Shown one piece after another: positions 3,252 to 46,286 of a stretch of DNA of 64,000 nt. The DNA lies in NCBI RefSeq assembly GCF_024521635.1, contig NW_026250412.1, forward strand, positions 930,001 to 994,000, read 5' to 3'. Each line of letters begins with the position of its first letter. Position 1 is the first letter of the stretch. The position numbers were made by a program, and so were the translations under genes. Source of the DNA: Tricharina praecox. Its lineage: Eukaryota. Under the pieces are notes generated by a model. The model ran no database searches, had not been told where the DNA came from, and saw nothing but the letters and a program-made list of their open reading frames with translations.

Positions 3252-4488
3252 GGCTGATACCGAGGAGTTCTTGCGAAGCTGGATTGAATTCCGTGCGTTG
3301 CGTGTCGGGGGTTGGGGGTTGTGGGAGGGGGATGTGGCGGGTTGGATAGGAGAGGCGGAACAACAACAGTGAAAGTTAGTTGTGCGGTGATGTTAAGAGA
3401 AGACGGCGAGAAGAGGCTAATGTTGGTAACGAGGAGCAAGGCAGGATGGAGCACGACAAGCCGGGGTCACAAGAGAGAGTGATAGGAGAGAGAAGACAAC
3501 GCCGGCTGAGAATCTGACCGATGAGACAGCATTGTTATTGTTAATGAATAGCTGAGTCAGCGATCCATTCAGGATTATTTCTCGTTCTCTTTCTTCTTCG
3601 TTGAGGTCCCGCCGGACTCGGGTTTCCAGCGGTTATAGGTCGCATCATCTCCAACGAGTGGCTGGCGTCAACTCAAAGAAGTGGCTGGTGGCAGTGTGGC
3701 GAATGACCTGCTCGGCGGTGATTAGTCAGTGCAGCCCAGTGGCTGATGCAAGTGTGGCAAATGGCCTGTCCGGTGGCGATTAGTCATCGTGACTTGGCCT
3801 CTGAGTGGACACATGTGATGCATCCTTGCCGCAGCTCGCTCGCTCGCTCAATGCAGGGGTCAACGGGGGCTGAAGTGAGGAAGAGGCCACGATTTCCAGA
3901 GAAGGCCGCAGAGACAAATGAAAGAAGTGTGAGGAACAATAACGACGTAGAGAAGACAAACACAGGCTCGCAAACCCACTCACATCTCGTGCTCGCCCAT
4001 ACATACCTCTTCTCTTCCCCGTCTCTTCAGGTGGACGGCAGTCTGACTGGGCAGCTCGGTCAATCATTTTAACCCAGCTTGTCGGCCAAACATTCAGTTC
4101 GGAGAAAGTGCAACCTGTCCCAACCGGAGATATCACTCTTCTTCTTCCCTTCTCTCTCACGCGCCATCTGTCTCGTCGCTTGTGTGCATCTGTCCTCATC
4201 ACTGTCTTTCCATTCGCATCCCGGTTCTAGGCTACTTCCTACCCTCACTTATTTTTGACCCCTTCCAAGGACTAGACAGAACGTCAACCTTGGACGACCG
4301 GACCGTCACAACTTTTTTTGGCGACGACTCCCCGTTTCCCTTACAATCCACACCTCGGAGCTCCCAACATCCACCCACTCCGACTACAACTCAACACGAC
4401 CGACGCGCCCCGCCAGAGAGAGAGTAGACGAATACACGCCACCGGTCAAGAATCAAAAGGTCCAAAATAGACCGTACCGCCCGACATC

Positions 4489-6872: not shown

Positions 6873-7640
6873 TGTATCTTATTGGTGTTTTTTCATTTTC
6901 GGTTTTTTTCTCTTTCTTTTCTTTTTCTTTTCATTCTTACGGAGCGGTTTCTTTTTTTACGTTTCTGGTTTGCCTTACTTCATTCAATTCTCTGGTTTGG
7001 TTTGATTCGTGTGTTTTGATATTTGATATTTGACGATTGAGAGATGTGATGTGATGCTCGAGATGCGGGTAAATCAACAGGATTTCTTTGTGAGTCACAA
7101 GATGCTCGATGCAGATAAAACAATAGGATCTCTTCGTCACTCGAGTGACTCGAAGTGGCTTGATTACATGCTATCTATCGCTACTTATTTTGTAAATCCA
7201 CCCACTTCATTACAGCAATGCATTTGTCACATACGAATAGTCGTTTAGGACCGTACGCGATTTCTGGCGCTGCATCGGCCATGATCCAGCAGTAGACACA
7301 CACCAGGCGGAGGCCTTGAGGTTCACGTTTTCGAGTCGAGCAACAGTTACCCATGATGATGAATGATTGGGTGGCAGGCACGAGTACTTTGGGGCAGTGG
7401 CGGGCGAAGTGGGTTGCAAAGTACGGTCGAATGGATCACGGATGAGGGGCGTTCTTATGGAGTTTGTGTCAGGTTTCATGTCGATTGGATTTTCACAAAA
7501 TGGTCTTCAAGTCATGACGGGGGAGCGATGAGTGTTAGAACCAGAACGCCCCCAAAACGCCAATCCCATTATCAAACTCCGGTCGAACGTGTATGCCCCC
7601 AGACAGAAATTGACTTTTTTGTTTATATCAACATCAACAT

Positions 7641-8409
7641 CTAGTAACCCTCACCGCTGACGGCAGGGAACTCAAAGACGACAGTCTTTCCAGTGAGCTT
7701 GCGGTAGACCTCGCCGAAAGTGTCGACCTTGTAGTCAACGGCGGCACGGTCCTTGGCGTCAAGGAAGACCTTGATCACCTTGTGGCCGTCCTCCTTGGTG
7801 CGAACGCGCTTGCCGACGATCTCGGTGGGGTACACAAGGTCGCCCAGGATCGCGTCGTGAACGGCGGTCAAGGTGCGGTTGCGGGGACGCTTCTGCTGGA
7901 CGCGGCTGCGGCGTCCCGGGAGGGGCAGGATGCGGCGCTGAGCAACGAAGACGACGTGGCGGTCGGAGAATTTCTTCTCGAGCTCACGGGTCAGGCTAGT
8001 TGGATGTCAGTGGTGGGAGCGGACAGATGTTGCGGCAGAGGAATGCATACCGCTGCTGGACCTTGTGGAAACCCTGGAGGAGGGGGACTGGAACGAAGAT
8101 GACCACCGCCTTGCGTCCCTGAGAAACCTCGATCTGCCCACCACGTAAGACGTTCCCGCCGTTAGCATCCCGTACCATCCTTCATTCGAAGGGAAGACTG
8201 GGAGTTGTCCGTCCGCATCGTTTTTTTCTTTCTTTTTCAGGAGGTTTGTAAATTACCTCCTTGGCCGAGGAGAACTGGAGAGGGCGCAGAGACGCCTTCA
8301 GGTCCGACACGGAGGACTCAAGGTCGAAGAGAGCCTGAGCAATCTGGGTCTCCAACTCTGAGGGGTTGGCGTGCGAGGGGGAGTTGTGGGCGATCTTGTT
8401 GGTGGCCAT
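7641..8409 (-). CDS. RPS7: 40S ribosomal protein S7 (eS7)
   Basis: Exons 8409-8257, 8133-8051, 7995-7641; [46 protein letters not shown]. Confidence 0.97.
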
Positions 8410-10603
8410 TGTTTCGGTTGAAGGGTTTCCGGTGGGGGTCGGTTACGTGAGGCGTCGGAGGTCGGTCGTTCGTTCGTCGGGTTGTCAGTGTGAGGCTGCG
8501 CAATTGGAATATCAAAGTTTGGTGATTGTGCGGGTTGTGGATCTGTGGGATCTGTGGTGGGACTGCGTTTTTAGCGAGCCCTACACTAGCTACGCTAGCG
8601 TGCTACGCAAGACTCGAGTGATTGTTGGTGGCGGATTTTGCCGATTAGCTTCTGTCACAACAGAGAACTCTCCACTTGGCCTTGTCACGTCCCCAATAGT
8701 TGAACCCACTGCATAACAACGGGGGGTAAAATCTAAGTATCGATAGCGTTGAAAAGAATCGCATGTCTTACTGCGGGGTTACAATGGTGACGCCCTGTGA
8801 ATAAATACCACCAAAAGGGTGATAGATGCGGCTTTACATGTGACCATGTGTAGCTGTACGGACTACCTATCATAGCGTCATCAGGGGTCTTGTCTGATGT
8901 CCAGACAAGAGTGTTACCGATCTAGATTACCGCCTTTCGTAGGAAAGCGAGCTGTTGGACCTTGCACTCTGAGCCTAAGCATGTCCTCCCAGCATCTGAT
9001 TGCACCACCGTATGATTCATGGGTAAATGTCTGATGCAGATATTTTCTCATATGGTAACAGTACTAAGAATCTGAGACTTCCATATGTGTAGTTCGCCAC
9101 ACTACTTTCTCCACGATACTATACACTTCGACTACGACTTGCTGGAGCAGGAGATCGCAGAGTGAACGTAGGGGGGAACCGTTCCGATGCATAGCGAACC
9201 TCAGCTCGCTTCAGTGACCTGACACCTCCGAAGGTGGCCAGACGAGTGAGAAATCCGAGGACCTTACAACCTACATACCGTGCGTTGTCACCGTTCTCCA
9301 ACTGAAGTGAAGTTTTAGTGAGTCCAACTTCAAGGGCCTTCGCTGCCTTGCAAAATCCTACCTCAGGATAATCAATGCAAGGCCAGCGCCATCTTGGACT
9401 CCGTGTAAGCCCCTCCCCCTCCCCCGCCTGGTTCCATATCCCCTCTTTTCCCATCATTCAACCAATGAAGCACTATCAGCACTCAAACTGAGGAGAAAAA
9501 CATCACTAGACACCGTGCGAATTCCTCTTCCAAAGGCTCGGGCATTGGAAGACATCCGACCAACGAGAAAGAGAAAGAAAACGTGGAGAAGAAGCCGAAG
9601 ACGAAGACGAAGCATTCGTTATTGTGGACAAAATAAAGAACACATGATCACACTCCCACTACATATTAGACTCGAGTTCGATGGATATACTATTCACTAC
9701 CAAAACTCCACGATGGACATACTCAGCCGACACGGCCAACATGGCCACACCACTATCACCATATAAGAATTCGGTGCGGCCGACTGCGTGGCCATGACGT
9801 GGCCGGACAACTTGATCGCAGTCCACGGGAATGGCCACTGGAATCACTTCTACTATTATTCATCTTAGAGTGAAAGCAAGAAGGCCGTTCGGCTGAAGCT
9901 AATCCAGTAACACGGTTCTACTCCGTCCATTCCACTACCCAGTCCACGATCCTCGGGCCTCGGTCGCCAGTGAAATTAACTACCTCATGCTCAGCACCAT
10001 TTTTGCAACTTGCTACCGGTACTCAGCATCGTTTCAACGTCTCCAGACCAATTGGCCACTGGCCAGTGGCCACTGATTCCCACCAGCTCCCAGAAAGTTC
10101 AAAGTTCAAAGTTCAAGAACCTGACCAACATGCCCAACTCGACCAACTCGACCGCACCATCAACGATGCCCCAAACCAACCTCTTCGGCAAGCTCGCTGG
10201 TGTACAATGTACATACAGTCGCTGCGTGGTCCGTCCGGCCGCCGAGGTGTCCGTGCTGCGGAGGGCAGTAACTATACCTAGTAGGCAGTGAAGAGAAAGT
10301 CATGGAGCTCGAGGACCGCCGGCACCGCATGATAGGTACTCGCCCCTGAGTCCCTGACCAAGCTGCAAGCTGTCCTCCCGCTCTCGGGAGACGAAACGAG
10401 ACGAGAAAGTCAACCCGAACCTGACTGCTTTCTGCCGTTTTGGGCCCACGGCTGCCCCCGTGCTCGTTGCTCTCGAGGCTCCCCGACGTGGCGTCCGCCG
10501 CGGTGATGGTTGTGGAAAAAAGTCCTCAGCGCAGTGTTATCACGGCCGGTTGTCCGTTGACTACCTAGCAGCTAGCTAGTCTCCGCGGCGAAGGTTTGAT
10601 ACC

Positions 10604-11968: not shown

Positions 11969-13822
11969 TTAAAAGCTGAAGCCGGGAGGAAATCCTCCCT
12001 GCGCACTGTTACGGCCGCGTCGTCCGCCACCGCCGCCCGGGAAGCCGCCGCCAGGGAAGCCGCCTCCTCCTCCGCCAAAGTTGAAGGATCCTCCGCCGCC
12101 GCCGCCGTTCATCATGTTGAATAGCACGCCTGAGACGACAATCAGTAGCTGACCCCGATACCAGAAACCGACAGAACTTACTTGGGTCAATTCCGCCTCC
12201 CATTCCGCCCATACCCCCTCCCATCCCACCAAACATGTCTTCGGGATCCTGAAGATCAATTCCAGAGTCATACCGCTCCTTCTTTTGAGGATCCGAGAGA
12301 CATTCGTACGCCTCACCGAGATCTACAAGCAGCCATCAACATCCATCACGTGATCACTGCGCACGAAGAAAGAAAAAAGAAAGGAAAAAAGAAAGGAAAA
12401 AAGAAAAAAACGTACCCTTGAACTTCTCGGCAGCTTCCGGATTGTCGGGGTTCTTGTCGGGGTGGTACTTGATGGCCATCTTTCGGTACGCCTTCTTGAT
12501 GTCGGTCTCGGTGGCATCCTTTTCAACACCCAGGATCTTGTAGTAGTCCTTCCGTTTGCTCTTCTTAAGCTCCAGCTCCGCGTTCCGAATCTCCTTCTTG
12601 AGCGTAGCGTCGGCGGGATCGGCCTCGGATGCGGCTTTAAGTTCGCGCACGGCCTCTTCCCAGTTACCGCTTTCGCCGAGAGCCTTGGCACGAGTCTTTC
12701 GCGCTTTGGTGTAGGTTGGATCGAGCCGCAGAGCTTCGTCGCAGTCCGTGATGGCTTCCGACCATTCTTTGAGCTGTTGACAGTCAATCCGGCGTTCCAC
12801 GGCGACTGCACCAAAACTCAAGTGAAAGAACACTGTACCTTGCTGCAAGCCATAGCCCTGTTCTGGTATATTTTGGCGTTGGTCCCCTTATTGTCCGGGT
12901 CGACGCTCAGAGCCTGCGAGTACAGATCCTTGGCCTTGGCATAATCGCCCTTCTTGAAAGCTTCGTTACCGTCCGACTTCTTCCTTTCGAGCTCCCGAGA
13001 CTTCTTGAGGTATATTCTGGCCGTCTTCATGTCGGGATCGCACCGGAGAGCTTCCTGGAAGTGGGCGGCAGCCTTCGAATTGTCGCCCTGGGCGTACAAG
13101 ACGCGTCCCCGCAGCACCAACGCGTCGGAATCCTGCTGGTTCTGGCGTAACAAGCTCATAGCCACGTTCTGCGCCTCACCCCACGAGTGCTGTGTACCCA
13201 TCTTGAGATTGGCCTCTCCTCGCAGAATCTTCCACTCCTTGGGGGGGTCGACACCCTGGCCCAGCCCCGACTCAGCCCTATCCAGAGCGTACAGGGTCAT
13301 CGAGCCGTGAGTACCAGACTCCACGCTCTGCCTCGCAGATCTGAGGTGCTGCAACATTTGTGAAGCGGGGGCCTTATCTTTCGCGGACGGGGGCGGCTGG
13401 ATCCTGTCGTACGTCTCGAGGGCATCCTCGGGACGTCCCAGGGCGAGCTGGATCCTGGCCATCCGGAGGAGAGTTTTGGGGTTGTTGGGGCTGAAGCGGT
13501 CGGACGAGATGCAGTCCGCCAGGGCCTCGCGGAATTTCCCAGCGAGCATGTATGCGGCGGCGCGGTTTGACAGGAACGTTCCGTTCTCGGGCTCGCACTC
13601 GATCGCTTTGGAGTATTGCTCGACCGACTTCAGGTACTCCTTCTGCTTGAAGAACTTGTTTCCGGCTTGCTTGTAGGCTTCGCCGTCGAGATCCTCCTTT
13701 GGCGGATCGGGGGGGAGTGTGTGTGTACCGTTGACGCCGTTGGTGGCGGGAGCGGCGGTGGTGGTGGAGGCAGCAGGTGGAGGGGTTGGATCCATGTCCA
13801 TGGGGGTGGAGGAGGGCGGCAT
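11969..13822 (-). CDS. TPR-repeat DnaJ co-chaperone (DNAJC7/Tpr2-like)
   Basis: Exons 13822-12839, 12773-12416, 12322-12182, 12129-11969. TPR motifs (GNKFFK, SNRAAAY, GNEAFK), J domain [10 protein letters not shown]...YHPDKNP...[14 protein letters not shown]-rich tail. Start codon less certain. Confidence 0.92.
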
Positions 13823-31817: not shown

Positions 31818-34800
31818 TCACATCACGCCCCCCGCCCTGACCAGTTCGCAATCGCCACAATACTCCTCGAGGCCGTGCGCACCCTGGAGGCCGTCTATGC
31901 CCTCGACGCCCTCCATACTCCTCAGCAGCCTGGCGGCGAACCTACACCTCTCTAGCTCGCCATAGACCCACCTCTCCCACTCGGCCTTGACCAGCTCCCG
32001 CTCGAGTGCGTTAACGACTCTGACGGCGACCACCAGATCGTGGCGGTAGCGCCCCAGCGTCTCGCGGCCACCGTGGATCCGCTGCCCCATCGTCCCGTCG
32101 CCGCTGGTGGCGCGAGAGAGGAATTTGCTCCAGCACATGCCGCCCGAGGGGTGCGTGATGTTTCCTGCGGGCGCGACGGCAAGCTCAAGGTCAGAAATGG
32201 TGATGGCTCGGGCCATGGTGCCGTCCGGGGCTGCGCTGATGGATTCGAGGAGGGCGTGCGCGCGACGCTCGCTCCAGTAGGCCGTTACAGCACGGGTTGA
32301 TAGCGCCGTGTTAGCCACGACCGAGAAGCCGAGGAGCCCGAGGAGAATCCAGTGCGCGGAGAACAGGCCGGCTATGCCCTTGACCACGGCGACGATCGAC
32401 ATGATCACGTTGCTGACGGCGCTTTCGGCCAGGCTCAGGGTGTTTTCGAGGAGCATCTGTGAGAGTGAGTGCTGCTTGATCGGAATGCGGGGAGCGTGTA
32501 TGGGCTTGGGTGGCGTGTCCTGTTTGGGCTGGATGCCCGTTATGGCACCGGCGGACGGAGTGGCGGGAACCACGGTTTGGCCGTTAATGCCGCCAAAGAT
32601 CTGCATGGCGGTGAGAACATTTGCTGATTTGCCGAGCTTGCCAATTGCTTCGGCAACAACGTCGCCTAGATCTAGCGCATCGTTGTCCAGGTCCTCCTGG
32701 GCTTGCTGTTGGACGATATCTGGGCAATCTCGTATTAGTTTCCGCCACCACGGCAAGTGGCCATTATGCAATACATACTTTTTGAGAACATTGGATCCTT
32801 AAACCAATCGACTCTTGTCCATACCGTCAACTTGCTTTTGCTTGCGGTCACATGCGTAATCACAATCTTGCTGACCATGATGAAATTCATGCGGTGCGGG
32901 AGATGCCAGGGTGTCTTCACATCCGTGACCACATAACAGCTATGCGCATACATCGGTTAGCTCGTGAATGGAGAAAAACAAAAACTCCGGTTGGAGTGAC
33001 ACGGGAAACACACATATGTTCATCCTGCTTCTCGATGGTCTGATGGTCGACGACATCTGCTCTCCTATTGCGCCCTGCAACCACGGGGTAATCAGCAGGG
33101 GAGTCCCGCAACATCGAATGGTGGAAACCAACCAAAGGTGTCTAGGAAAGTCGCATGATAAGCAAACTGCCGTCTTGCCTTTCCCTTATCCAGTTCCTTC
33201 CACGGGCTCTGTTGAATTGCTAGACCCCCCACACCGTCAATTTCCGTCTTCCGCGCGGCACAGCTCGGGGTTGACATGGAACCATACGTTGAGCTCTCCT
33301 CTGCGCGTACATCATCTGGAACACAGTCGACTTGTCCCCGAATAGGACATGAAACAGTGCCTTCGGGGGGATTTCAAATTCGCGCTCCAGTGACCTTCGG
33401 CTCATTCCTGGCGGGTGATACACCACAGGCGCTGAAGGGAGTTTGAGTTTGGCCTCCCTGGCTGCAAAGGGGAAGCGGTTATCAGCGAGATGTACACATC
33501 GAAACGAGGGGCGGCAAAAGCGTACCTTTCTCGTCGAGAGCCCGATCACCGTCACTAAAACGAGATTAGCATCGCTTCCCACAGCTGGTGGACGAGTGAC
33601 AGCTTACTGATCAAGCCGGAGTCTGAACTCCTCTGGTGCGCCCCTCCTCCTACTGATAGGTTCGTCGCCGCGGCCGTCGGTGTACAACCCCACGTCTTCC
33701 CAGCTCATATCATCTGAGCCCCTACTTTCGACCTCCTTCTCGAGCTCTATTAATTGCTGCAGTAGTTCCTGACTATTCATCTTCGTACCCTCAATCGCCG
33801 CCTTGGGGTGTGCATTCCTAACCATGAGGTCCAGCCGTCTGTGAAGCAACCGGAGAGGCTCCAAGAACGTCTTGATGGTGATTAGCGACTTCTCACCGCC
33901 CGCTCCTAGATTAAGATGGAGGAAGAGATAGTCGCAATCTTTCTCTGGCGCTGCCTTGACCTCTGCGATGGTAGCTAACGGAGTGATGCTGGTGAATACT
34001 AGTCCTAGATAGTGTGAATAGAAGTACAGGTTCCGATCGGTCACGAAGCAGCGGCCGGGAAGTTCTTGAGTGTCATTTGGACTCCAGATGGCACGAAACA
34101 CTGAGAAGTCAGCCAGCCAGTCAGCCAGCCATTAAGCTTCAAATACCAGGAAGGACATACCTAATTGCACCACATGATCGTGCGTCCCGGGGAAAAGCAT
34201 CCTGAAGTGCTCATCCTGCACTCTTAACGCCATCGGATAACCCGGGAAATACTCATACTCACCAGGCGTCGAATCCCCCTTATTCCCACCGACATCTAAG
34301 CTCATGGTTTTGCGATGTCCCTTCTCCGGAGCGGTGACCGGTGATCTCTCGGTGATTCCCGTGATTCCGGATCCGGAGGTGACCGTGGCAGCTGTCAATA
34401 GGTTAACCGGCGATGGAGTGCTGCTGAGTGTATTCGGCGCAAGACTGCTAGCTGTAGGAACCTGGACCTCCGGCAACGTCATCGTTATTTGCTTAGCCGG
34501 GTCCGGAGAGATGGGGAGAAGATTGTGGCTCGCTGCGATCAGTGCCGAAATTCCTACCGGTGTTGAGCCCATTCCAACTGGGGAGATGTTGCGTTCGCCC
34601 ATGCCGAACGATGCCTTGCGGGGATCCGATTTCACTGGATTCGACGGTTCCGGTGCTCCTCCTCGGTTGGCATCCATCGACGTTGTTCCTCGGGAGAATG
34701 CACCGCCGGTACCCGGTCCGAGTGTGGTAGCGCGCTCAAAGCCGTGGTTGTCGGCGTCACGTCGGATGGTTCGGGGTAGCAGTGAGAGACCTTCGGGGGG

Positions 34801-36405
34801 TACAACCGAGCTGGCCGAGTTCCCGTCGTGGCCTCTGGTAACATATGCCGGTTCCGCTGGCGGCGCAGGAGCCGAGGGAGGTAGGATAGAGAATGCCTGC
34901 GAAGAAGCAACGAGTGATGAGGACTCCACGGCAGCCCTCTTTGCCTGCTCGAAGACAGCCATCCACATGGTAAGATCGGACTGTGTTTCTGTTTGTAAGA
35001 GTATCGTAGTATCCTTTGTCTTGACCTCGAAGCAGAACCTGCGTTCCTCCTGGAAAGCCGGCTTGATATTGCACAGAAGCACTCCAACCTTCTCACTCTC
35101 CTCCGCACCTCCTCCGCGATAGCCCTGTACCAACCAACCAAAGATTCCCGCCTTGATGAAGAACCATCTCCGAATCCACAGCGTCCGTGTAGGCTTGCCG
35201 GTAAGCGTGCGCATGAATAGCCAGCCCTGCTTCTCGCTCGGCACCTCCTCTCCCTCGACGACAGCGGGGGGCCGTGACGTCAGGTACGGCACCGTGTTCA
35301 AAGAGTACTCATCCAGCTCTCTCGCCGGCTGGTACTCCATCTTCGCCCTCCGCTCCAACTCTTTCCTGGCCGTCGTAAGCTGTTTCCGGAAAACGCTCTC
35401 ATTGACCTCCATAGAATCGTAGCAGCTCCGTATCCTCTCAATGTCCGAACTGCATTTCTCCACCAGCCCCGCCATATCCTTGCGCAATCCGATCTGCTCC
35501 CTCCATTGATTCGAGATGACCTTGGTGAGTAGCCGATCGAGATTGATCCGGAACGCCGGCGCCGCAATGCAAAAGTCGAAGCACGTCTTGCTGTAGGCCT
35601 TCCTCGCTTCGTACAGCTGAAACGCGTCCTCCCGCAGCGCCGATGGCTCCTTCGATTTCGACTGCGACAGGTACCGGGCAAGTAGCGCATCGTATTTCGT
35701 CTGAGCGGCCTCGAGCAGTCTCCTCGTCTCCTGTCATCTCACATCAGCACCTCCTCCTCATACTCCTCCTCCTCCGCCCCCTCCCCCCCCTCCCCGCGAG
35801 ACCCCCGCGCAGACCGACCTTGAAGTTCTTGACCTCCCCCCGCTGAAACGTCGTCATCGGCTCGATGATATTATTCTGCACGCGCCTTGCGCCGACCACA
35901 ATGTTCGTCCAAAAGCCCTTTGAGCCCTCCGCATACCTCTGCATAGCCAGCAGGGTGTAATCATGATCGACGACGCTCTCGGAGATATTCCCGGGGACGG
36001 TGCGGGCCAGGAAGTTATTGATGGGGTCCTCGAGCGCTGTTCCGCCGTCAGCATTCATCCCATGTTATGTTACTCCCCTGCGTGACATAATCAATCGATC
36101 AGCCGTACCAACAACCTCACTCACGAGCTTCACCGACGCTTTGATGAACCCGTCCAGCCATTTCTCGACCAGGTCGACCTGCTCGGCGTAGTGGATTACG
36201 GTGCCGCGGAACGTGGGCGAGTCGAGCGACGCTTCCTTGAGCGTTGCGGGACTGGAAGTTGTCAGTGTCAGTGTCAGTGTCAGTTTTTGAAACGTGTTGG
36301 AGCGGCTCAGGGTGGCATATGCAGGGAGGGGGGAGGGGCGCGGGAAGGAAGGTATTAGGTTCGCGCGCGAGAGGCTCACACTAGAGTTATCGGGCCACTG
36401 GCCAT
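31818..36405 (-). CDS. SIP3: Sip3/Lam1(Ysp1)-family BAR-PH-GRAM-VASt membrane-contact lipid transfer protein
   Basis: Spliced start MASGPITLV|PATLKEASLDSPTFR; PH domain EKQGWLF...WIRRWFF...ERRFCFEV; FRAIWSPN...PGRCFVT; VASt-like EFEIPPKALFHVLFGDKS...KTPWHLPH...KIVITHV; C-terminal TM segment. Many introns, internal junctions not all resolved. Confidence 0.88.
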
Positions 36406-37445
36406 AGCGGCGCTGGATAGAGTGCGAATGGACGGGCCGAAGGTTCTTTCTTTCCTGCTTTCTTTCTCTCGGGCTGAGTTTGGGTTTGGGTTTTCGCGGG
36501 CGTGTTTGTGACGTGACGACGGTAGAGAATGGAGAGAGAGACGAGGAGCGAACGAACTCCTTTGTATGTAGATCTCTGAGAGTTCTTCTTTCTCCTGTTT
36601 TACGCGCTCGGAGCGCCTCGACTCGAGGGAGGTGATTCAACTAGCTAGCTAGGGAGGGACGGAGGGACGGGGGACGGAGGACGGAGAGTGCCAGAGTAAC
36701 TCTAGAGTGGAGTCTGTAGTATCGAGGTTCTAGTGCACCTGGGATAGGTATGCGTACGTGGATATTGACGGAGACAGTACGGTAACGTTACGAGTACGGG
36801 TACGTGGGTGATATGTGGTCAACCTACCGGCGATGGCGAAGAGGAGCAAACACCGTCAATGCCCGCTTACTGGCCGCAGCAAGGATGGCACCAGCTGCTG
36901 CTTAGAGGCAAGACTGGGCAGATATAGTACCCAAGGTACGGTAGCTATGATAGTTGTGAAGAATCGAGGCTCGAGACTTGCCTTCGAATCGCTGTCCCGT
37001 GACTGTGATATACGTACCGGTTACCTGCACGGGTAGGCAAGTGCTAGAGGATATAGTACTTGTTAGTATGAATAGCACACAAGCCCGTCAAGGAAAAGTT
37101 GGCAAAGAAGAATAAGAAGAAGAAGAACAAGAAGGGAAAAAGAAAAGAAAGAAGGTCATGCTGGATGATGCAGGCGGCTTAGTCGCTGTGCCACAGCCCG
37201 TTCAAGCCAATAGGGGACCGCAGCACTCGTTCAAGCTGTGCTCGGGCTGCACCAAGAATCGGTCAGTCCAAGAGTCAAAGTCATCTCTTGACTCCCCCAA
37301 ACTTAATCGAACACACCAACCCCATCTCCTCCCTCAACCTCATCTCTTCCCCCCACAATCTACCCGCCCCACTTCGCCCTTGAAGATCTCCCCGATACAT
37401 ATACACAAACCCTCCGATAGGTCCATACAATCCTCCCCCGCCACC

Positions 37446-38546
37446 ATGTCGAACCAACTACAGATCAGCATTCCGACCACCTCCGAGTCAGCCGAAGGCG
37501 GAAGCAAACAGTACACGCTGTACCACATCCTGTGGCGCCTTCCCATGCGCAGCAACTACGTCAAGAAGCGCTACAACGATTTCACCGCGCTGCACAAAGA
37601 CCTCGAGACACACACGGGGCAGTCCCCACCACACCCCATACCTCCCAAGCACTACTTCGGCAGCACCGTCGGCAACCCAGCGCGAACCGAAGAGCGTCGC
37701 GCCGCGCTCGAATCCTACCTGCACGCGATCCTCTCCTCGCCCGACAGCCGGTGGCGGGACTCGCCGGTCTGGCGAAGCTTCCTCGCGCTGCCTGCCGCAG
37801 CGGTCGCCGGCGCATCGGACAACACTTTCAGCTCGCGACTACCCTCGGGGCCGATCACGGATCCCACGCACTGGCTCGACTCTCACCGCGAGCTCAAAAC
37901 TCTCCTCCACGACGCGCGCATCTTCCTCAGCAAGCGCGACGGCGCGAACACGACAGCGGAGCAGCACGAGGCGTCCGCCGCTGCCAAGCGCTGTCTCGTC
38001 AAGGCGTCAGCCATCATCTCAGCGCTCGATCAGGGCCTGCAAGCCGTCGCGCTGGCCCAGCAGCGCGAGAAAGAAAAATCCCACCACCCGGACTACCTCC
38101 TCGACGGCGAGATCCGGCGGCGCCGGGACCTCGTCGCCGCCGCCCGCCAGGAACGCGACGCCCTAGAGTCGCTCGCCAGCGTTAAGCGCCACGCGAACAA
38201 CAATCAAAACGCCTCCCACCCCACAGCGACGGCAGATAAGTCCTCGCTGCTGTTCTCGGCACGCGCGGGCGGCGGCCGCGTCCTCGGCGCTCCTCTGCCG
38301 GAAACGGAGCGCACGAGGGAGCTGGGCAATGATGGCGTGCTGCAGCTGCAGAAGACTATGCTGCAGGAGCAGGATGTCGGCGTCGAGTCGCTGTTCAACA
38401 TTGTGCGAAGGCAGAAGCAGATGGGGCTCGCGATTGGTGAGGAGCTAGAGACCCAGAAGGAGCTCCTGGAGAGGCTGGGTGAGGATGTTGATAGGGTCGA
38501 TAAGAAGACGAAGATCGCGAAGAAGAGGGCCGATAGGATATCATAG
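37446..38546 (+). CDS. VAM7: Vacuolar Qc-SNARE Vam7 (PX + SNARE)
   Basis: PX domain (YTLYHI, KKRYNDFTALH, PPK, EERRAALESYL) and C-terminal SNARE coil (EQD...RQKQMGLAIGEELETQ). ATG 37446 in strong GCCACCATG context; intronless. Confidence 0.92.
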   Translation: MSNQLQISIPTTSESAEGGSKQYTLYHILWRLPMRSNYVKKRYNDFTALHKDLETHTGQSPPHPIPPKHYFGSTVGNPARTEERRAALESYLHAILSSPDSRWRDSPVWRSFLALPAAAVAGASDNTFSSRLPSGPITDPTHWLDSHRELKTLLHDARIFLSKRDGANTTAEQHEASAAAKRCLVKASAIISALDQGLQAVALAQQREKEKSHHPDYLLDGEIRRRRDLVAAARQERDALESLASVKRHANNNQNASHPTATADKSSLLFSARAGGGRVLGAPLPETERTRELGNDGVLQLQKTMLQEQDVGVESLFNIVRRQKQMGLAIGEELETQKELLERLGEDVDRVDKKTKIAKKRADRIS

Positions 38547-39552
38547 GTTCTGGGTGCTGTGTGATGTGTGATGTGTGATGTGCGATGTGTTCTGGGTTCT
38601 GTGTGCTGTGGTTTGTCACGTGTGTAGACTGCGTTTGTTGGCTTGCTGGTTTGTTGGCTTGGTGCGTTATTGATTGGTTGATTTGATTGATTGGGCTTGG
38701 TGGGGGAGTTTGGTTTCGTCGTCTCATTTGCATGTGTGTGTCTATAGTCTATAGTATAGTGTCTAGCTGCTCGTTCATATTCGTATCGCATCTTGCGTCT
38801 TTGTAAGTAAGTAAAGGGGAGGTTACCTTGGGTCTTTGGTCTTTGGTCTTTGGTTAATATTTTGTCTGTCTGTCTGTCTCTTTCGGTGTATTGATGATCT
38901 TGTCTACATGTACTCTACTTAGGTTACTGCCTACATTACAACTCGTGCGGTGCTTTAGATGTTACACCTGCAAATTCTCACTCGATGGACAGTCACGCGA
39001 CTATATACACTCGATGGGTAATCATATGACATTGCTTGAATCTGAGTAACTCAGCCGTCGACTCACTAGCGATGACTCCTTCCACTTCCCATTCCCATTC
39101 CCGTTCTCGATCGGTCGACGGAGGCATTAGGTCTGACCGAGTGATCTCCGTGAGACTCACTAATAGTACTGCCGCAAACACCCGTCAGCCAGTGAGCCAG
39201 GGACTCGACAATCGTATTTGCCATACCTACTAGTATTCTATATCTAGTATTATTCTAGACATGATACTCCAGATGCAGCAAAACGGCACAAAGCACGCAC
39301 GCACGCAGAAGTTATAGCAAGCAGCCAAAGAAACCCGAACAACAAGCACAAGTACAAGCACAAGCACTTTCAACAACCAACCGACCCCTTGAAGAAGTAC
39401 TCAGGTACCAAAACGGCCAAACATTTAACATCCGAACATGCACCAAAAAGAGCTCAGGCTGTCAAAACAATTAGCCAAACCGAACGAGCACCCAAACTGC
39501 CAAAAGAACCTCCAAAAAAATCAGTCAACCAAACAAAAATCAAAAAAAAAGT

Positions 39553-41799
39553 CTACTTGTGACGTTGCGGCAAGCCGGGGCACAGGGTATTAATCTTCGC
39601 CTGGTCCGCCTTCGCCAGCGCTATAGCAAGCGTGTTCTGCTCCTTCGGTATATCTTGGACTTCCAGTGCGATATGGTGAGCGGCGACGATCATCACCAGC
39701 TCGCGGAGCGGAGCTATGGCGGAGCCGCGTGTGGTGCTTTTGCGGATGAACGCAGCGACGAGCGGGTTGCAGCAGTGCAGGACGACGGTGCTGTCGCGGA
39801 GGATCTTGTTCCATTTGTTGAAGGCGTGGGCGATGGCGTACAGCTCCTTGTAGTCCTTGGACTCGGCGTGAAGGCTGCTGGGTACGTCCTCGGTGAAGAG
39901 CTGGCTCGCGTCTGCGTGCGCCCCGATGTTCTTCTGATCGGAGCGCAGGAAGTGCCCGCCCATGCTGTCGGGGATGGCGTCGGTCCATACCCGAAAGGTC
40001 CGCGTGGGCGGCCGCAAAAGCGTGATCCCGTTCCATTGCGGAAGGAATGTCGACCACCAGAGAAGATCCTGCTTGGCGCCCGAGGAAATCACTATGTTGT
40101 CTTCGCGGTTGTGGGCGTTTTTTTCGTCGTGGAGTCGTCGCAGGAATGGACGGCCGCCGGGGATAACCTTGCAAACAGACGACAAGTGGCCAACCACTTT
40201 CTCCAGCTTGGTGTAGGGAACTATCGTTTCTTGCATGAGACCGTTGACCTCGTTGATGGCCCTCTGGTGTTTTTCTCGTGGTAGGCGAGCCTCCATCGCG
40301 ACGGTGTCAATTTCAATTCCGAGGAAGGTTACTCGCGTGCCTTCTTCGTTCTTGGAGGTTTTGATGTTGAAACCGAGGTCCGCACAGATGGTATTGAAGT
40401 CCGTGACGAAGGCGAAGTCCTTCCGGTTCGAGGGTATGACCGCAAGGAAGTCATCGAGGTAGTGCAAGGTGAGCTCCCAGCCCTTTTCCTCCCGCAGGAC
40501 CCATTCGAGCGCTGACGAGAATTTGTCGAAGATGATGGGCGACGTGCGCAGGCCAAACGGGAGGAACTGGTCGCACCAGTAGCGCCCCTGCCAGCAGAAT
40601 CCAAGGAGCCACCAGTCTTCGGGGTGGACTGGAATGTGGCGGAACGCATCGGCTAGGTCGCGTTTGACGAGCTTTGAACCTGGTCCTGCTTTCTGGATGG
40701 CTTTGATGGCGTCATCGATTGTAGTGTATTTGAGCGAGCTCCACTCCTGCGGGATATGATCGTTTACAGATCTTTTACGAGGGCAGGACAAATTGTGGAT
40801 ACGACGGAAAGTTCCATCCGACTTTGGCCGGAGCCCGAGAGGCGATGAAATAAACTTGTCCGGGAGCTTTCCTGGTGGCATTGCAAGGAATTGGCCCAGA
40901 GCAACCCGTTTACGAACATCGTCGGTAAGGCTGCTAGGATCCTTGAGCGCGGAACGTTGATTTTCACTGATGATGCGCTGCGGAGGACCCGTGTAGCCGA
41001 TTTTGGCCCCATAGGTAGCAATATCCATGAGTGTGTTCTTGTAGCCGGGCTCGGGGTGGTTCCGTAACCAACGCTCGAAGCCAGCCGCTTTCAGAGGGCC
41101 GCGATTCATAAAAGCAGGGTCACAGGGTGCAGTTAGAGCGTAAAAGAAGCGAAGCTGTGGGTCTTGGAGGCGGTGTTTTGTTAGAGAAGAAGACGCTGCG
41201 GAGCCTTTGGCTGCGGGGCCTTTGGCTGCGGGGCCTTTAGATACGGGGGCTTTGGTTGCGGGGCCTTTGGCTGCGGGGCCTTTGGCTGCGGGGCTTTGGG
41301 CACCTAGTAGGAGGGGTAGAAAAGTGGCCCACCACTCCGGCTGAGTCTGGGCAGCAGGGGCAGCAGCGGCCCGTTGGGCGGGTTGAGCCTGTGCAGCAGT
41401 GGTAAGAGCGACCTGTCGGGCGGGTTGGGCCTGGGCAGCAGGGGCGGTAGCGGCCCGTCGGGCAGGTTGAGTCTGGGCGGCAGGGGCGGCAGGGGCGGCA
41501 GTAGCAGCAGCGGCTCGCCGGGCAGGTTTGGTCTGGGCAGGTTTGGCCGGGGCAGCAGAGGGAACAGCGGCCGGGAGTGTACCGAAGATACTCATGAACC
41601 CAGTGAAGAGAGCAGGTAGCAATACTGGTGGGACCGCTGCGGGGCTCTTTTCGGAGCTCTTTGCGGCGCTCTTGGCGGTGTTGGCTGGTGGGTTTTTTGC
41701 GCCGCTGGCTGCGTTGCCGGATGCGGAGCTCTTTGCGGAGCCATTTTCGTTGTCGGCTGGCGGGCTGGTCGTGAGGCCAGTGGCCTTGCGCTTAGGCAT
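39553..41799 (-). CDS. Stand-alone reverse transcriptase + degenerate RNase H of DIRS/Ngaro (tyrosine-recombinase retroelement) type, with low-complexity N-terminus
   Basis: Uninterrupted ~748-aa ORF from ATG 41799 (MPKRK). RT motifs SPLGLRPKSDGTFRRIHNLS, KRDLADAFRHIPV, LPFGLRTSP, YLDDF (YLDD at 40461..40450), FLGIEIDT. RNase H-like VWTDA, KELYA, HCCN, NTLAIAL. Confidence 0.9.
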   Translation of the reverse strand: MPKRKATGLTTSPPADNENGSAKSSASGNAASGAKNPPANTAKSAAKSSEKSPAAVPPVLLPALFTGFMSIFGTLPAAVPSAAPAKPAQTKPARRAAAATAAPAAPAAQTQPARRAATAPAAQAQPARQVALTTAAQAQPAQRAAAAPAAQTQPEWWATFLPLLLGAQSPAAKGPAAKGPATKAPVSKGPAAKGPAAKGSAASSSLTKHRLQDPQLRFFYALTAPCDPAFMNRGPLKAAGFERWLRNHPEPGYKNTLMDIATYGAKIGYTGPPQRIISENQRSALKDPSSLTDDVRKRVALGQFLAMPPGKLPDKFISSPLGLRPKSDGTFRRIHNLSCPRKRSVNDHIPQEWSSLKYTTIDDAIKAIQKAGPGSKLVKRDLADAFRHIPVHPEDWWLLGFCWQGRYWCDQFLPFGLRTSPIIFDKFSSALEWVLREEKGWELTLHYLDDFLAVIPSNRKDFAFVTDFNTICADLGFNIKTSKNEEGTRVTFLGIEIDTVAMEARLPREKHQRAINEVNGLMQETIVPYTKLEKVVGHLSSVCKVIPGGRPFLRRLHDEKNAHNREDNIVISSGAKQDLLWWSTFLPQWNGITLLRPPTRTFRVWTDAIPDSMGGHFLRSDQKNIGAHADASQLFTEDVPSSLHAESKDYKELYAIAHAFNKWNKILRDSTVVLHCCNPLVAAFIRKSTTRGSAIAPLRELVMIVAAHHIALEVQDIPKEQNTLAIALAKADQAKINTLCPGLPQRHK

Positions 41800-42869
41800 T
41801 GGCGAGGCGTTGGGTTGATGGAACGGGCTTTTTGTTTCGGTTGTGCTGGGTAGTAACAACCGGAAGGTAGACGTGTTATAGATGAAATCCGCAAACCCCG
41901 CCCGGCCATAGCTACTTTATTTACACGTCTGCCTGCATACTCCCGTGACACGACTCCCCCAGAGTCCAGAGTCCAGAGTCCAGACTACCCACGACCACGT
42001 ATGTATCCTGTGTCACCTCAAGGCCTCCAAATCCATTTCTTCGTCATTGGATAGGTAGCTCACAGCACCCAATCCGTCCCATGAATTGTGGTGTTCGAAT
42101 GATGCTACGCATGGGTACGTGTAGTTGAAACATGGTTGGTTACGCCGTTGCGGGCCGAGGAACGGGCCGGCCGTTATGGGCCATTAGCGGCCGCGCCATG
42201 CTGCAATAGTGCCGTATGTATACAAGCTGTTGGTCATGGATAATCAACTAACTAGGTTGCCCGGCCCGGGATCGCTGTGGGCTGTAGGGCGAGAGTGCGG
42301 GATGTATAGTACCAGTAGTAATATGAAGTAGGTACCCGAGTTGTCCGAATTCCGTAGCCTGGTTTCGATATGGTTTCGTTCCAATTTCGATCCGATGCCG
42401 ATGCCGAAGAAGGCTGATCAGTGGTGCCAGGTAAATACCTAATACCTAACACCGCTATGGTGGGCCGTGGGACGGTAGAGTAGAATAGTGATATGAGGTG
42501 GTTAGCGCGTCCTGACTACTTTACCATACGGTAGTACTCGGTCCGTGGGTTACAACATGCGGATGTAGCCAGCGGCCAGTTATTGGGCTTATTGATAGGG
42601 GGGGTTTTTGTTTTGTTTAATGATTGCATACGACCTATATATCTAGATCTAGTCATACATATTACACACTCAGTTCCGCACCACTGTCAATCCGACTCTC
42701 ATCGAGCGGCCCGGTGATGCTTTCCCTGCCCGCCGCCACCCTGGTCTGTCCCATCGATACATAGAGGTAGAGGTCGAAGTATATACTAGAAGTAGAACGC
42801 ATCAATGAAATAATACAAGAAACCTAAAGAAAAAAAGAAACATCCTCCTTCTCCTTCTCTCGCCTCAAC

Positions 42870-44300
42870 TCCCTTTCTGCTCGCTCCCTATCCTCCTACT
42901 CGGACATCTCATCCACTGCCTCCTCCTCAGCGACCGAGTAGTGTAGTGCTTCGACAGCTAGCATCACCAGTGGAGATCCGGGCCACGGGCGGTGGTTGTG
43001 CCGACTGCCGAGTGATTTCCAGTCCGTTTCGTCGGGAGTCCGGGAGTCGCACGGTGGTGCGGCTGTTTACTTTGTTTTGTTTTGCTTTGTTTTTGCTTTG
43101 CGTTGGTATTTTGTCTCCATCTTCATCTTTGTCTTCTCCGCCGCCGTGTTCGCCTTCGCCAAAAACATTTACCCTGGTGGGTGATAAATATTGATCCGCG
43201 GTCCGTATCCTTTTGCCAGCGGCCCGCCTCAATAGTGACGTGCGCAGTCTATGATTTGCAGCACGGTATCTTCGTCCAGCTCGGCGATCAGGTCAAGTGG
43301 ATGTAGGCGCAGGAGCTGGTGGTTATATGGATTATATGCCCGTTCAACATGGTGAGAGTGCGGCCGTGACTGAGTGGTCTTTGCGATATTTGAAGATGCT
43401 GTTTTCGGTTTTGTTTTTAGTTTTGATGGTGCGCTCGTTGGCATTGGGTTGGTTTGGGTTGGAGAGATGGTTGTAGGTTTGGATGGTTGGTTGCTGGCTC
43501 CTTCGTAGGACTCAGCTCGATCGCAGCCGTGGTGGAGGTGCGTTCTATTGGACTCAGTGGGTATGAGTATGATGTAGGGGGGACCTGGTGGTCGGAGTTC
43601 TGATGATGTTTGTTTGGTGGCTTTCCGTCTTCTTCACCTTGATCGGTTTCGGTTTCGGTTTTGTCTTTTTCGTCCGTGTTTGGCTTCTTCGTTCTTCGTT
43701 CTCCTCCTCCTCCTCCTCCTGCTTCTGTAGCTCCTCCCTCTCCTCCTACTGCTTTCGGAGCTCCCCCCTCACCTCCTCCACCACCGCCACCTCCACTCCC
43801 TTCTCCCCTCCTCATCTTTTCTCACTTCTTTCTTCTCCGCTGAATAACCGATCCAACTCTTCACTCTGCTGGGCGATGCATAAGCAATCCCCCCGTTAGT
43901 AGCTTGCGCAGTCAATGATTTATTCGTCGGCTTCCCATCTTAGTCGTGGTGTATATGCGTCCTATTAGACTCGATCGGTAGGTAAAAGTGTGATGTAGAG
44001 GGAACCCGGCGGTCTGAGCTGTGAAGCCTGAGATGTTCCAACAATCTATTTTCATTTCGGTCGCCTTGTATACCGAGGTGCTGGGTTGAAGAGATTGAGA
44101 TTGGCCTCGTGGCCTGGGCTCCGCCGCCGGCGGCGGCGACGACAGGTCGGCTCCTTCGTCCCCTCCTTCAACCGGGGGTGGTTGCCGCAGTTGTAGTTTG
44201 CCATGGTGTTTTTTGGTTGTTGGGCGTCGAGTTTCGGAAGCGGAAGCGCCAAAGGTGCCTGGATTCTCGGCGGCCATGTGATCGACCTTCCACTTCTCCT
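42870..44300 (-). pseudogene. Decayed ORF(s) of unknown family
   Basis: Coding-like Gly/Glu/Lys-rich and S/T/P-rich segments broken by stops and frame changes; two related IIDCA motifs. Boundaries approximate. Confidence 0.35.
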
Positions 44301-45241
44301 CTTGAAGCCCCGCATCCTCCTGCGCTTACACCTCTCCCCTCAGTTTTTTTTGGTTGGTTGGTTCGGTCGGATTGGATGTCACATGCTTGTTTTTCGAGTT
44401 TTGGTTTCGTCGCCGAATAGGATTTGGTGAAGTTGATGTCCTCGTTCTCCGGTTGGAGTGTTGATAGGATGATAGGATGATTGAATGATTGTGTGATTTA
44501 ATGATGAGAAGAAGAGAGACGAGACCTGAAGGGGGAGGGGTTTTATAAGAAAAAAATTGGCTTGAATGGGCGGCCATAAAGGTCGTCTTTCTACGGAAAA
44601 CAGTAGTGTGATCCATTAAAAATTGCGGAGATGGGAGATCATTGAAAGGACTATGGCGGTTGATGGTGGAGAGCGGAGGTGCCGGTTGTCATGGGGATGA
44701 ATGGCGAGTTCTCACGTCGGAGTTGGGATCATCAGTCGGATTACATAAAACTTGGAAGTTACGTTACAATTCATCACCAAATGTCCCTCGTATTACATAA
44801 ATGAGCATTACTACGATACTGCTGCCATCTGGCTTTGCAACTATTCTCCTGCTCTTACTATTCATCTTCTCTCCGTCTCCGCCCACTTCACTTCCACCCG
44901 CTTCCCCCAAGCCCCTCCTCTTCAGCCCCTCCTCTTCAGCCCCTCCCCCGCCCACTCATCGCTTGGTGATAGCATCGACTGACCGAATGATCTTTATCGC
45001 AAGTCGTAAGGAGTGTTGGAATGTCAGGGTTGAATTGGTAGTATCTTTGGTTCGTAGGGGAAAATCATCTGCCGTGTAGTGTAGGTGTGCGCAGTGGCAG
45101 CGTTCTTCTTGCTAGTGCCCGGGGCGGTGTCTTCGCTGCTCTTCATCCACCTCATCCTCCTCATCCTCCTCAGCCTCATCCTCTCCATCCTCGTCCTCCT
45201 CAACTGATATCCCCTTGAATTCCTCCAAGTTGAAGTGGACT

Positions 45242-46286
45242 CTATCGTGGTCGATTGTTGATGCTTAAGATGTATCCATGACCTATTGGTCTGTAGAATT
45301 TTGAGTATAGTAGGGCGTCGCGCTCATCGTCAATCTCCGGCTCCTGGCCATCACAGCGGACCATCTTGAAGCGGTAGTAGCCCTCCTCCGCGTTCGTTCC
45401 CTTCACCTTCCTCGTGGCAACCTCGTGCTCCACAACGGTATACAAACCGTCGTAACGATAGCCAACACTCGGCGCCCATTTGCTCGCTCCCTTAGCCCTG
45501 GCGACCCGTACGGGCCGTTGGCTCTCGTAGCTGCGCATGAGCACCTTCGTGTGCGTCGTTAGCACAGGCCCCGTATCCCCGTTGGCCTTCCACCCATTGG
45601 TTCCAGAGTAGAACAGGACATCCCCGTTATCCTCATCGGTGGCCTCATACCCACTGCCACCCGACGAGATAATCGAGAATGCCCCGACATCTAACTGTCC
45701 ATAAATGCCTGCAACAGGCGCACAATGGGCTCCATCGCGGCGCGCGGAAATCCGCGGCGGCCACCAAGTTCCGAGCTCGATACCGTCGTAGCCAAACCCG
45801 TTCGCTGGACATGACCTATTGGTCTGTAGAAATTTGAGTATAGTGATGCCGTCGTGGCCGAACCGGTTCGCTGGACGTCCTGAGCTCGCCAACTTGGGAT
45901 ACCTCTTGCCGGCTGGAGAGATGTGGTGGATTACTCCTGCCACCATCTGCTCGTAAACCGGCATCACCGTCTGATCATCGAGTGGAGGGACGTTCTCATC
46001 CTCCCCATCCTCGTGATCAGGGTGTGCCATCACCTCTTCATCATCGGCCTCTTCCTCATCCTCTGGCTCCCGGGTCGGTGCGGGGCCGGCAGTGAGTAAC
46101 CTCTGTGCCAAATCCCCCTCCTCCCACTTGGTACACAACTCCCTTGCCATCTCCTGCAAGTCCTTCCGGGAATCTAGCTGCCCATAATCCCTGCAACCGG
46201 AAGATTTGATTGTCTGAATGATTGTGATTAGAAAGAAAGGAAGAGAAAGTGGGAACGAAAGATGGGTTGATATACCTGAAGTCCAT
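45242..46286 (-). CDS. SRA/YDG domain protein (putative modified-cytosine reader), rearranged and possibly pseudogenic
   Basis: FGYDGIELGTWW, RDGAH...AGIYG...GAFSIISSGG.GYE..DED.GDVLFYSGT, PVRVAR, APSVGYRYDGLYTV (YDG at 45454..45446), YRFKMVRCDGQ. Intron with GTATAT donor at 46275. 5' end unresolved. Confidence 0.8.

Follow-up and report, generated by a model that had tools for sequence, protein, structure and literature searches.

The subject of this report is a gene for a solitary reverse transcriptase (RT) in a 64,000-nt stretch of DNA from Tricharina praecox (assembly GCF_024521635.1, contig NW_026250412.1, forward-strand positions 930,001 to 994,000; hereafter the window). Its host is a Pyronemataceae (Pezizales) fungus, and it is the only RT-like locus in the window. 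The gene descends from the pol gene of a Ngaro-type tyrosine recombinase (YR) retrotransposon, has lost the other parts of such an element, and has a syntenic homologue in a related fungus. Furthermore, it is under purifying selection, its transcript is spliced, and its active-site residues show an uneven pattern in which the polymerase site is complete and the RNase H site is not. We think it probable, with substantial room for doubt, that this is a host-retained Ngaro pol gene whose polymerase site has been kept under selection and whose RNase H chemistry has been lost.

The gene was noticed in a first-pass annotation made from the sequence alone, which described an intact open reading frame (ORF) of 748 codons with the RT motifs DLADAF, LPFG and YLDD, and every one of these motifs proved to be placed exactly (Table 1). 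At the base composition of the window, a frame this long would stay open by chance with a probability of ~8e-14. The frame could be extended upstream as far as a TTG at 41859; read from its first ATG, the protein opens with the MPKRK that the annotation had reported, and the T-rich 3′ flank that it mentioned is also present. Pfam identifies RVT_1 at residues 362-497 (E 7.8e-12), while RNase H-like families match only below threshold (E 0.022 and 0.04). The protein has the features expected from sequence of a competent RT, namely the motif A Asp, Y-x-D-D, a primer-grip-like LPFG and an aromatic residue five places past the motif A Asp. This last residue, F386, is in what we take to be the position of the steric-gate aromatic residue of retroviral RTs (human immunodeficiency virus, HIV, and Moloney murine leukaemia virus, MMLV).

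A structure predicted by AlphaFold from a 70-sequence alignment (pLDDT 94.7, pTM 0.88) includes a complete RNase H fold, on which the four carboxylate positions of the active site fall on beta1, alphaA, the end of beta4 and the start of alphaE. The best PDB matches found with Foldseek are RT-RNase H enzymes of cauliflower mosaic virus, foamy virus, Ty3, MMLV/XMRV (xenotropic MLV-related virus) and HIV. The Atlas clusters most similar to the RT core bear the labels Mollusca, Basidiomycota and Cnidaria, which serve as leads only. No second RNase H domain was found in the protein by Pfam or in the predicted fold.

The origin of the gene is revealed by its relatives. Of 8000 candidates scored in a large protein collection, 434 were relatives, mostly RT-RNase H proteins of 500-600 amino acids (aa), and a scan of metagenome contigs gave 38 related loci. 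At most of these 38 loci, an upstream ORF1 of ~400 aa ends in a Cys/His knuckle (gag-like), and a downstream ORF3 of ~350 aa, which overlaps the end of pol, carries the motifs HSFRRG...LGRWSSNAYQAYI. Pfam assigned no family to the gag-like ORF1 and gave only a weak Phage_int_SAM_1 match to ORF3. When an ORF3 profile was compared with the PDB, 17 of the 18 matches were to Cre recombinase (E ~3e-7), and they included the catalytic C-terminal GHSxRxG...W...Y segment. At one locus (L004), two identical units of 4547 bp stand in tandem. Another (L010) has split direct repeats in the order A1, ORF1-3, B1, A2, B2 (Table 1) and no inverted repeats, a layout that corresponds to the Ngaro architecture as outlined in PMC3783388 and PMC13465315. 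Relatives with an intact RNase H site form protein clusters of 10-24 members across many contigs, as a transposon family would show. Only two relatives are longer than 1310 aa, one of which, from Cryptococcus, has a sub-threshold Phage_integrase match.

The first-pass annotation had proposed a DIRS/Ngaro-type origin, and these results separate the two. According to the accounts given in PMC3783388 and PMC13465315, DIRS1-type and Ngaro elements belong to the same broad lineage of RT-RNase H elements that use a YR in place of an integrase. DIRS1-type elements have inverted terminal repeats, an internal complementary region and a methyltransferase domain, whereas the window gene has none of these. 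The sister elements, moreover, have split direct repeats, no inverted repeats, no methyltransferase and an ORF3 that directly overlaps the end of pol. The Ngaro half of the proposal therefore stands, and a DIRS1-type origin does not.

The sister Ngaro family, complete with gag, RT/RNase H, a Cre-like YR and the A1..B1-A2-B2 repeats, occurs in numerous copies, with a DNA identity of 83-96%, at L004 (1-9039), L010 (8383-13650), L006, L008, L009, L011, L012, L014, L016, L019-L028 and L032-L034. No signature of repeat-induced point mutation was found in these copies, the CpA share of C>T changes being 0.03-0.21 against 0.32 expected.

At the window gene itself, the remaining parts of a Ngaro element are missing, in agreement with the first-pass annotation, which had seen no gag, recombinase or repeats. 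Searches of the 64-kb window by tblastn with ORF1 and ORF3 of a sister element gave no match at E<=1e-3. An unfiltered six-frame search of the whole window with hidden Markov model (HMM) profiles gave nothing better than E=5 for gag and 8.7 for YR, in a procedure whose positive controls reached 1e-130 (gag) and 1e-203 (YR; all controls 1e-47 to 1e-203). Upstream of the RT core there is a low-complexity basic tail in place of a gag-like ORF, and downstream ~1 kb separates the RT stop codon from a VAM7-like gene. No terminal or split repeats flank the ORF, where only coding tandem repeats and short, chance-like matches of low identity were found. No inverted repeat pairs occur at 30000-52000, and a further repeat comparison gave only two short, weak inverted pairs (29 nt at 72% and 21 nt at 86% complementarity). 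The annotation had also described neighbouring accessory ORFs in decay; this claim was not borne out, as no recognizable remnants of accessory ORFs lie beside the gene.

The window gene is not the only pol gene in this condition. ORF1 and ORF3 are likewise absent from the L001/L002, L003/L007/L013 and L005 loci, the last of which is identical to the protein P0002, and from P0004, which is known only as a 754-aa predicted protein. In L001, L003, L005, L007 and L013, tblastn and unfiltered profile searches for gag or YR gave nothing better than E=0.23. A careful maximum likelihood (ML) tree of 26 rows unites the window gene with the four other YR-less lineages in a single clade (support 100/100), and a quick tree of 64 rows recovers the same clade (SH-aLRT 100). 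The careful tree omits the near-duplicate rows L003, L005 and P0003, the last being a truncated model of the L001 gene. The clade has a stem of ~0.33-0.35 substitutions per site, its sister group consists of P0005 and the Ngaro elements L004, L010 and L008 (91/80, within a clade at 100/99), and within it L001 is sister to the window gene (99/98).

All five YR-less lineages have basic low-complexity tails with net charges of +19 to +47, whereas the ~550-aa pol proteins of the elements have no tails. In the four lineages read as DNA (the window gene, L001, L007/L013/L003 and, to the end of its contig, L005) the frames are open over 715-911 codons, and within the L003/L007/L013 lineage changes in tail length give proteins of 911, 903 and 872 aa. 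The protein clusters of these relatives are singletons. Near-identical copies that carry a YR, which would suggest a recent truncation, were not found: the closest relative among all sources searched is ~60% identical, and the best protein match to the window RT in a collection of 15 billion proteins, from which the exact sequence is absent, is 58-60% identical. The first-pass annotation had presented a solo RT as a candidate for domestication; domestication is supported, but the case is not a solitary one, since at least four or five related YR-less lineages exist.

These genes and the elements also differ in their active sites, which we compared in an alignment of the window gene and 118 relatives (119 rows). 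The four RNase H positions read D-E-D-D in 102 of the 119 rows, and in 102 of the 111 rows outside the YR-less clade. In contrast, they read D-E-C-I in the window gene, so that only the first two acidic residues remain, as the first-pass annotation had noted; S-E-E-R in L001; H-K-D-D in L007; D-K-D-G in P0002; and D-K-D-N in P0004. Every YR-less lineage has at least one change within the first three positions (the D-E-D triad), and the set of changes differs from lineage to lineage. Altogether, 11 of the 20 RNase H carboxylates are changed across the five lineages, ten of them to non-carboxylates, while none of the 15 RT carboxylates is changed, all five lineages keeping the motif A Asp and Y-x-D-D (Fisher p=0.0005, for lineages that are not independent). 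The pattern is specific to the YR-less clade; complete sister elements mostly have D-E-D-D. The RNase H domain has a median identity of 0.64 relative to that of the RT domain in 10 pairs of solo genes, compared with 0.82 in 365 pairs of elements at matched RT identity, and the domain as a whole is relaxed in the solo lineages, though not freed from constraint.

Nine rows outside the clade depart from D-E-D-D, namely two truncated proteins, L004, L011, L014, L034, L030, P0067 and P0087. The pol gene of L004 (1645-3297) reads LHCHNEA where sibling copies read LHCDNES, so that either this copy relies on its siblings in trans or the position tolerates change. P0067 and P0087, which form a lineage apart within the family, have N-E-N-D at the RNase H positions and YLDN for YLDD in the RT, and may represent a second lineage with altered catalysis.

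Inheritance of the gene at a fixed chromosomal position is indicated by synteny. The first-pass annotation looked to an orthologue beside VAM7 in a related species as a sign of recruitment, and an intact one occurs on L001 and L002, two contigs of a related fungus that are 99.7% identical. This homologue encodes 715 aa, with the core placed after a basic S/P/A/K repeat tail of 180 aa, and is oriented as it is in the window. The VAM7-like and PH-domain genes accompany it on the corresponding side, at 83-86% and 86% aa identity, respectively. At the DNA level, the window and L001/L002 are 77-81% identical in the neighbouring genes and 70.7% identical in the RT core. L001 has an extra 4.6 kb between the RT gene and VAM7, which contains no YR; a sub-threshold match offers a weak hint that it is transposon debris.

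Selection on the gene was estimated from the ratio of nonsynonymous to synonymous substitution rates (dN/dS, or omega) between the window and L001 by three methods (NG86, YN00 and ML). Omega in the core is 0.29, 0.17 and 0.25, respectively, well below the value of 1 that would have spoken for decay. It is 0.12-0.20 in the RT domain and 0.10-0.41 in the RNase H domain, and for the neighbours it is 0.04-0.08 (VAM7-like gene) and 0.12-0.14 (PH-domain gene, with an unstable ML estimate of 0.64). Among the four lineages with DNA, omega of the RT domain is 0.11-0.22 in all six pairs. The resident copies are under purifying selection.

Transcription, another sign sought by the first-pass annotation, is seen in sequencing runs that match the window. 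Seven such runs from four studies were found, and four were compared over 35500-45500. In the contigs of X2 and X3 (two studies, two organism codes) and of X7 (a third study), three minus-strand introns of the neighbouring gene with GT..AG ends have been spliced out, and these runs are therefore RNA assemblies, though no run was recorded as RNA. X2 and X3 each contain a contig that is colinear with 39227-41232 without a single difference and continues over the joint 39168->39227, which removes a 58-nt intron from the 3′ untranslated region (UTR). Because the canonical signals of this intron are read on the minus strand, the transcript has the same sense as the ORF. X2 further covers 41265-41828 and has no cover at 41846-42513, and X7 has two short contigs on the ORF. 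Two other joints, 40617->40988 and 39367->44119, had short sides (20 and 27 letters) and were dismissed as repeat artefacts. In the DNA run X1, the sequence continues from the ORF into the flank at either end, and contig depth is 5-9 over the ORF and 7-10 over the flanks, a weak hint only, because contig depth is not copy number. All runs are nearly identical to the window (0-1 differences), and dN/dS is hence not computable from them.

The 15-billion-protein collection contains no protein at least 90% identical to the ORF, though proteins of Tricharina praecox are included (its RTG2 is 97% identical). The RTG2 of the window is also 89% identical to a metagenome protein, 80% to that of Wilcoxina and ~72% to those of Pyronema, Sphaerosporella and Trichophaea, which places the host in the Pyronemataceae; an Atlas comparison likewise indicated Ascomycota. 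The gene is thus probably absent from the annotation of the closest named species, perhaps through repeat masking, which may hide such genes from annotation generally.

These findings suggest the following history. An ancestral copy of Ngaro pol would have shed its gag, YR and split direct repeats, acquired a strongly basic disordered tail, and multiplied into several lineages, each passed on like any other chromosomal gene. With its polymerase active site held by selection, the protein most likely still makes DNA on an RNA or DNA template. The RNase H fold, kept without its essential carboxylates, most likely does not cut the RNA strand and probably acts as a duplex-binding module only. The expected product would be complementary DNA (cDNA) that remains paired to its RNA template, which accords with the suggestion of the first-pass annotation that such an enzyme could make stable RNA:DNA hybrids. 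The probable contribution of the basic tail is to bind nucleic acid or to direct the protein to the nucleus. The invariance of the RT motifs alongside the decay of the RNase H carboxylates points to selection for DNA synthesis without degradation of the template.

A more specific proposal, which we put forward tentatively and regard as rather doubtful, is that these genes form a Pyronemataceae family of active RTs without RNase H activity and with histone H1-like tails that produce persistent nuclear RNA:DNA hybrids or cDNA, and that they represent, as far as the literature searched shows, the first RT domesticated from a YR retrotransposon. Such a protein could possibly be a dominant-negative restriction factor that captures RNA of still-active sister Ngaro elements, or, by analogy with rvt, could possibly serve in genome maintenance or stress.

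Several observations weigh against domestication with a selected polymerase. The rate of evolution of the RT protein is about fourfold that of its neighbours (dN 0.30 versus 0.07). Synonymous divergence (dS) in the core is ~1 and saturating, 0.94 for the presumed orthologue compared with 1.07-1.33 for paralogues, so that dS cannot separate the orthologue from paralogues. One recent comparison, L007 versus L003, shows five nonsynonymous changes and one synonymous change plus variation in tail length, counts (n=6) that fit relaxed constraint in that lineage. A syntenic copy is known in a single other species, and on the far side synteny is broken in L001, where homologues of window 3807-8583 lie inverted; debris-like sequence adjoins both L001 and L007. 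Individual Ngaro copies also have RNase H changes, including the intact tandem unit L004, with His at position 3, and L011, L014 and L034, and the substitutions are consequently not unique to the YR-less genes. Expression is known from assembled contigs alone, which give no level, start or end, and transposons too are often transcribed. Finally, the clade is narrow: a solo-clade profile compared with 1.84 billion representative proteins found only two clusters near itself (980 and 900 bits), the next scoring 557 bits, although the clade may be under-sampled if annotators mask such genes.

A domesticated protein might also have no use for catalysis and act as a nucleic-acid-binding scaffold or regulator like Prp8, with its RT motifs retained for folding or binding. 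The dead RNase H site, the long basic tails, which suggest binding over catalysis, and a core that AlphaFold folds confidently throughout would all suit such a role. Against this, D381 and Y-x-D-D stayed invariant in five lineages over a tree length of about two substitutions per site, a span in which RNase H carboxylates decayed, and the RT domain has the lowest omega. We consider this account unlikely. The gene might instead be selfish, a non-autonomous pol-only Ngaro derivative that is mobilized in trans by autonomous Ngaro elements and survives by occasional transposition. The several YR-less lineages require at least three or four multiplications, complete Ngaro elements are the closest relatives and were found in metagenomes of the same series, the gene evolves fast, and there is the debris-like sequence beside L001 and L007. 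However, the window ORF has no split direct or terminal repeats, the second species has its copy at the syntenic place with unchanged orientation, and the protein clusters are singletons. The lineages, furthermore, are not near-identical copies, each having its own tail and its own set of substitutions, and the X1 depth over the ORF resembles that of the flanks (again, a weak hint). We give this explanation little credence.

It seems highly improbable that the gene is a functionless, decaying remnant whose open frame and transcription are left over from a fairly recent truncation. In favour of this, two of its RNase H residues have gone, few genes and little RNA cover are seen in the nearby 41.9-45.2 kb, and nonsynonymous changes outnumber synonymous ones five to one between L007 and L003. 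Nevertheless, frames are open in all four lineages read as DNA, despite a closest relative that is only ~60% identical; omega is 0.1-0.3, and neither an omega near 1 nor frame-breaking alleles in close relatives were seen. A neutral 2.2-kb frame would be expected to gather many stops at a dS of ~1. Host retention of an RT with a selected polymerase site and a disabled RNase H site therefore continues to be the reading that we favour.

By this evidence we class the gene as a transposable element-derived host gene, specifically a domesticated RT. To our knowledge, host genes that keep a working RT are rare, the known examples being telomerase and rvt, and most domesticated retroelement genes derive from gag, protease, integrase or env. 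The rvt genes constitute a separate class of RT and are not known to nest within any retrotransposon family or to contain an RNase H domain. They are described in PMC10680173 as single-copy domesticated RT-like genes in fungi, bacteria and rotifers. Like them, the window gene, apparently at a single locus, is a host RT of a soil fungus with intact catalytic residues and under purifying selection. Unlike them (rvt was compared by description only), it is nested in Ngaro pol and folds like the RT-RNase H of long terminal repeat (LTR) retroelements.

An RNase H fold that lacks its carboxylates beside an RT fold is found in the connection or tether domain of retroviral RT and in the RT-like and RNase H-like domains of Prp8. 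The RNase H fold of the window gene, kept without its full set of carboxylates beside the RT, resembles the connection domain and is probably likewise a duplex-binding or structural module. In retroviral RT, however, the dead domain precedes a second, active RNase H domain, which the window gene does not have.

The window gene shares with Ngaro elements (Muszewska et al., 2013; PMC3783388) a pol of RT and RNase H fold nested among theirs, as well as the pre-RT region and the RT motifs. It differs in having no gag, no YR and no A1..B1-A2-B2 repeats, in the loss of RNase H carboxylates, in the added tail and in its syntenic, apparently single locus. YR, gag and split repeats were each looked for and found to be missing, and for this reason it is not classed as a Ngaro element.

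PMC3783388, in its treatment of Ascomycota, reports a single remnant Ngaro and describes YR retroelements as nearly absent there, and PMC13465315 (2026) places fungal YR elements mostly in Mucoromycota and Basidiomycota and calls their domestication ‘less explored’. We found no description in the literature, supplementary data lying outside the search, of a fungal host RT derived from a DIRS or Ngaro element. The window gene is a Ngaro-derived gene in the Pezizales, in a phylum where YR retroelements were thought to be nearly absent; if the contigs that carry the Ngaro family are also from Pezizales, they contradict that reported near-absence. Moreover, the YR-less genes amount to a natural experiment, in which the polymerase site was kept over about two substitutions per site while RNase H carboxylates decayed independently in each lineage.

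Table 1. Positions of the RT gene, its motifs, domains and transcript, of the neighbouring genes used as synteny anchors, and of the repeats in sister element L010 (window coordinates unless L010 is named).
Feature	Position	Strand	Remarks
RT coding sequence	39553..41799	minus	748 codons plus stop; ORF read, with no intron seen where RNA contigs cover it
Transcribed 5′ leader, at least	41800..41828	minus	X2 reaches 29 nt upstream of the ATG
3′ UTR, at least to the ends of RNA contigs	39015..39552	minus	T-rich just past the stop
Spliced 58-nt intron in 3′ UTR	39169..39226	minus	GTATGG...CTGAC...CAG; X2, X3
N-terminal basic low-complexity tail	41155..41799	minus	Residues 1-215; A/P/S/K/T/Q-rich, net +19, isoelectric point 11.6
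Hydrophobic island in tail	41563-41640		Residues 54-79
Hydrophobic island in tail	41296-41343		Residues 153-168
Coding tandem repeats	41182..41572	minus	Periods 15 nt and 42 nt; encode AKGPA and AAQxQPARRA tail repeats
Conserved pre-RT region	40846..41154	minus	Residues 216-318; common to Ngaro pol (alignments); folds confidently
RT polymerase domain	40240..40845	minus	Residues 319-520; Pfam RVT_1 lies within it
Motif DLADAF	40659..40642	minus	
RT catalytic residue D381	40657-40659	minus	
Motif LPFG	40563..40552	minus	
Motif YLDD	40461..40450	minus	
RT catalytic residues Y447-L-D449-D450	40450-40461	minus	
RNase H-fold domain	39595..39999	minus	Residues 601-735; active site incomplete
Motif WTDA	39987..39976	minus	
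RNase H position 1, D607	39979-39981	minus	Kept
Motif KELYA	39849..39835	minus	
RNase H position 2, E652	39844-39846	minus	Kept
Motif HCCN	39777..39766	minus	
RNase H position 3, Cys677	39769-39771	minus	Carboxylate replaced
Motif NTLAIALAK	39636..39610	minus	
RNase H position 4, Ile726	39622..39624	minus	Carboxylate replaced; codon ATA
VAM7-like PX-domain gene	37158..38546	plus	Convergent neighbour, synteny anchor; Pfam PX
PH-domain gene	34132..35475	minus	Second synteny anchor; Pfam PH
L010 repeat A1	8383-8682		Followed by ORF1-3
L010 repeat B1	12743-12941		
L010 repeat A2	12941-13240		
L010 repeat B2	13452-13650		

Some of the tails of the YR-less proteins share one further feature. Hydrophobic islands with a pattern like G-[FW]-[LM]-S-x-[VLI]-F-[GS] occur in three of the five lineages (LFTGFMSIFG, GGFLSQVFSIF and GGGWLSSLFGS); outside the window they are found at residues 134-150 of the L001 tail and in the C-terminal tail of P0002. 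Judged from sequence, the pattern may be a short linear motif.

Two solo genes adjoin degenerate sequences that are related to each other (L001 12170-16781 and L007 5183-6331). One sub-threshold zf-RVT match (E 0.0066) suggests that these may be old non-LTR debris resembling long interspersed nuclear elements. The RT gene lies at a breakpoint of synteny, where L001 15616-20160 (reverse-complement), directly upstream of the RT gene, matches the 3.8-8.6 kb of the window in inverted order and replaces the window’s 41.9-46 kb region.

The other genes that Pfam identifies in the window (RTG2, Rua1, SAD/SRA, TPR and GMC oxidoreductase) are an ordinary fungal set. Upstream of the RT gene, 41860-45240 is a 3.4-kb stretch, CT-rich and of low complexity, that has no convincing ORF; RNA cover there is slight or absent in X2 and low in X3. 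The SAD/SRA fold binds methylated DNA; the gene with this domain (Pfam E 4e-30) is the next one upstream, at 45242-46150 on the minus strand, and has direct repeats within it (45277/45810 and 45779/45845).

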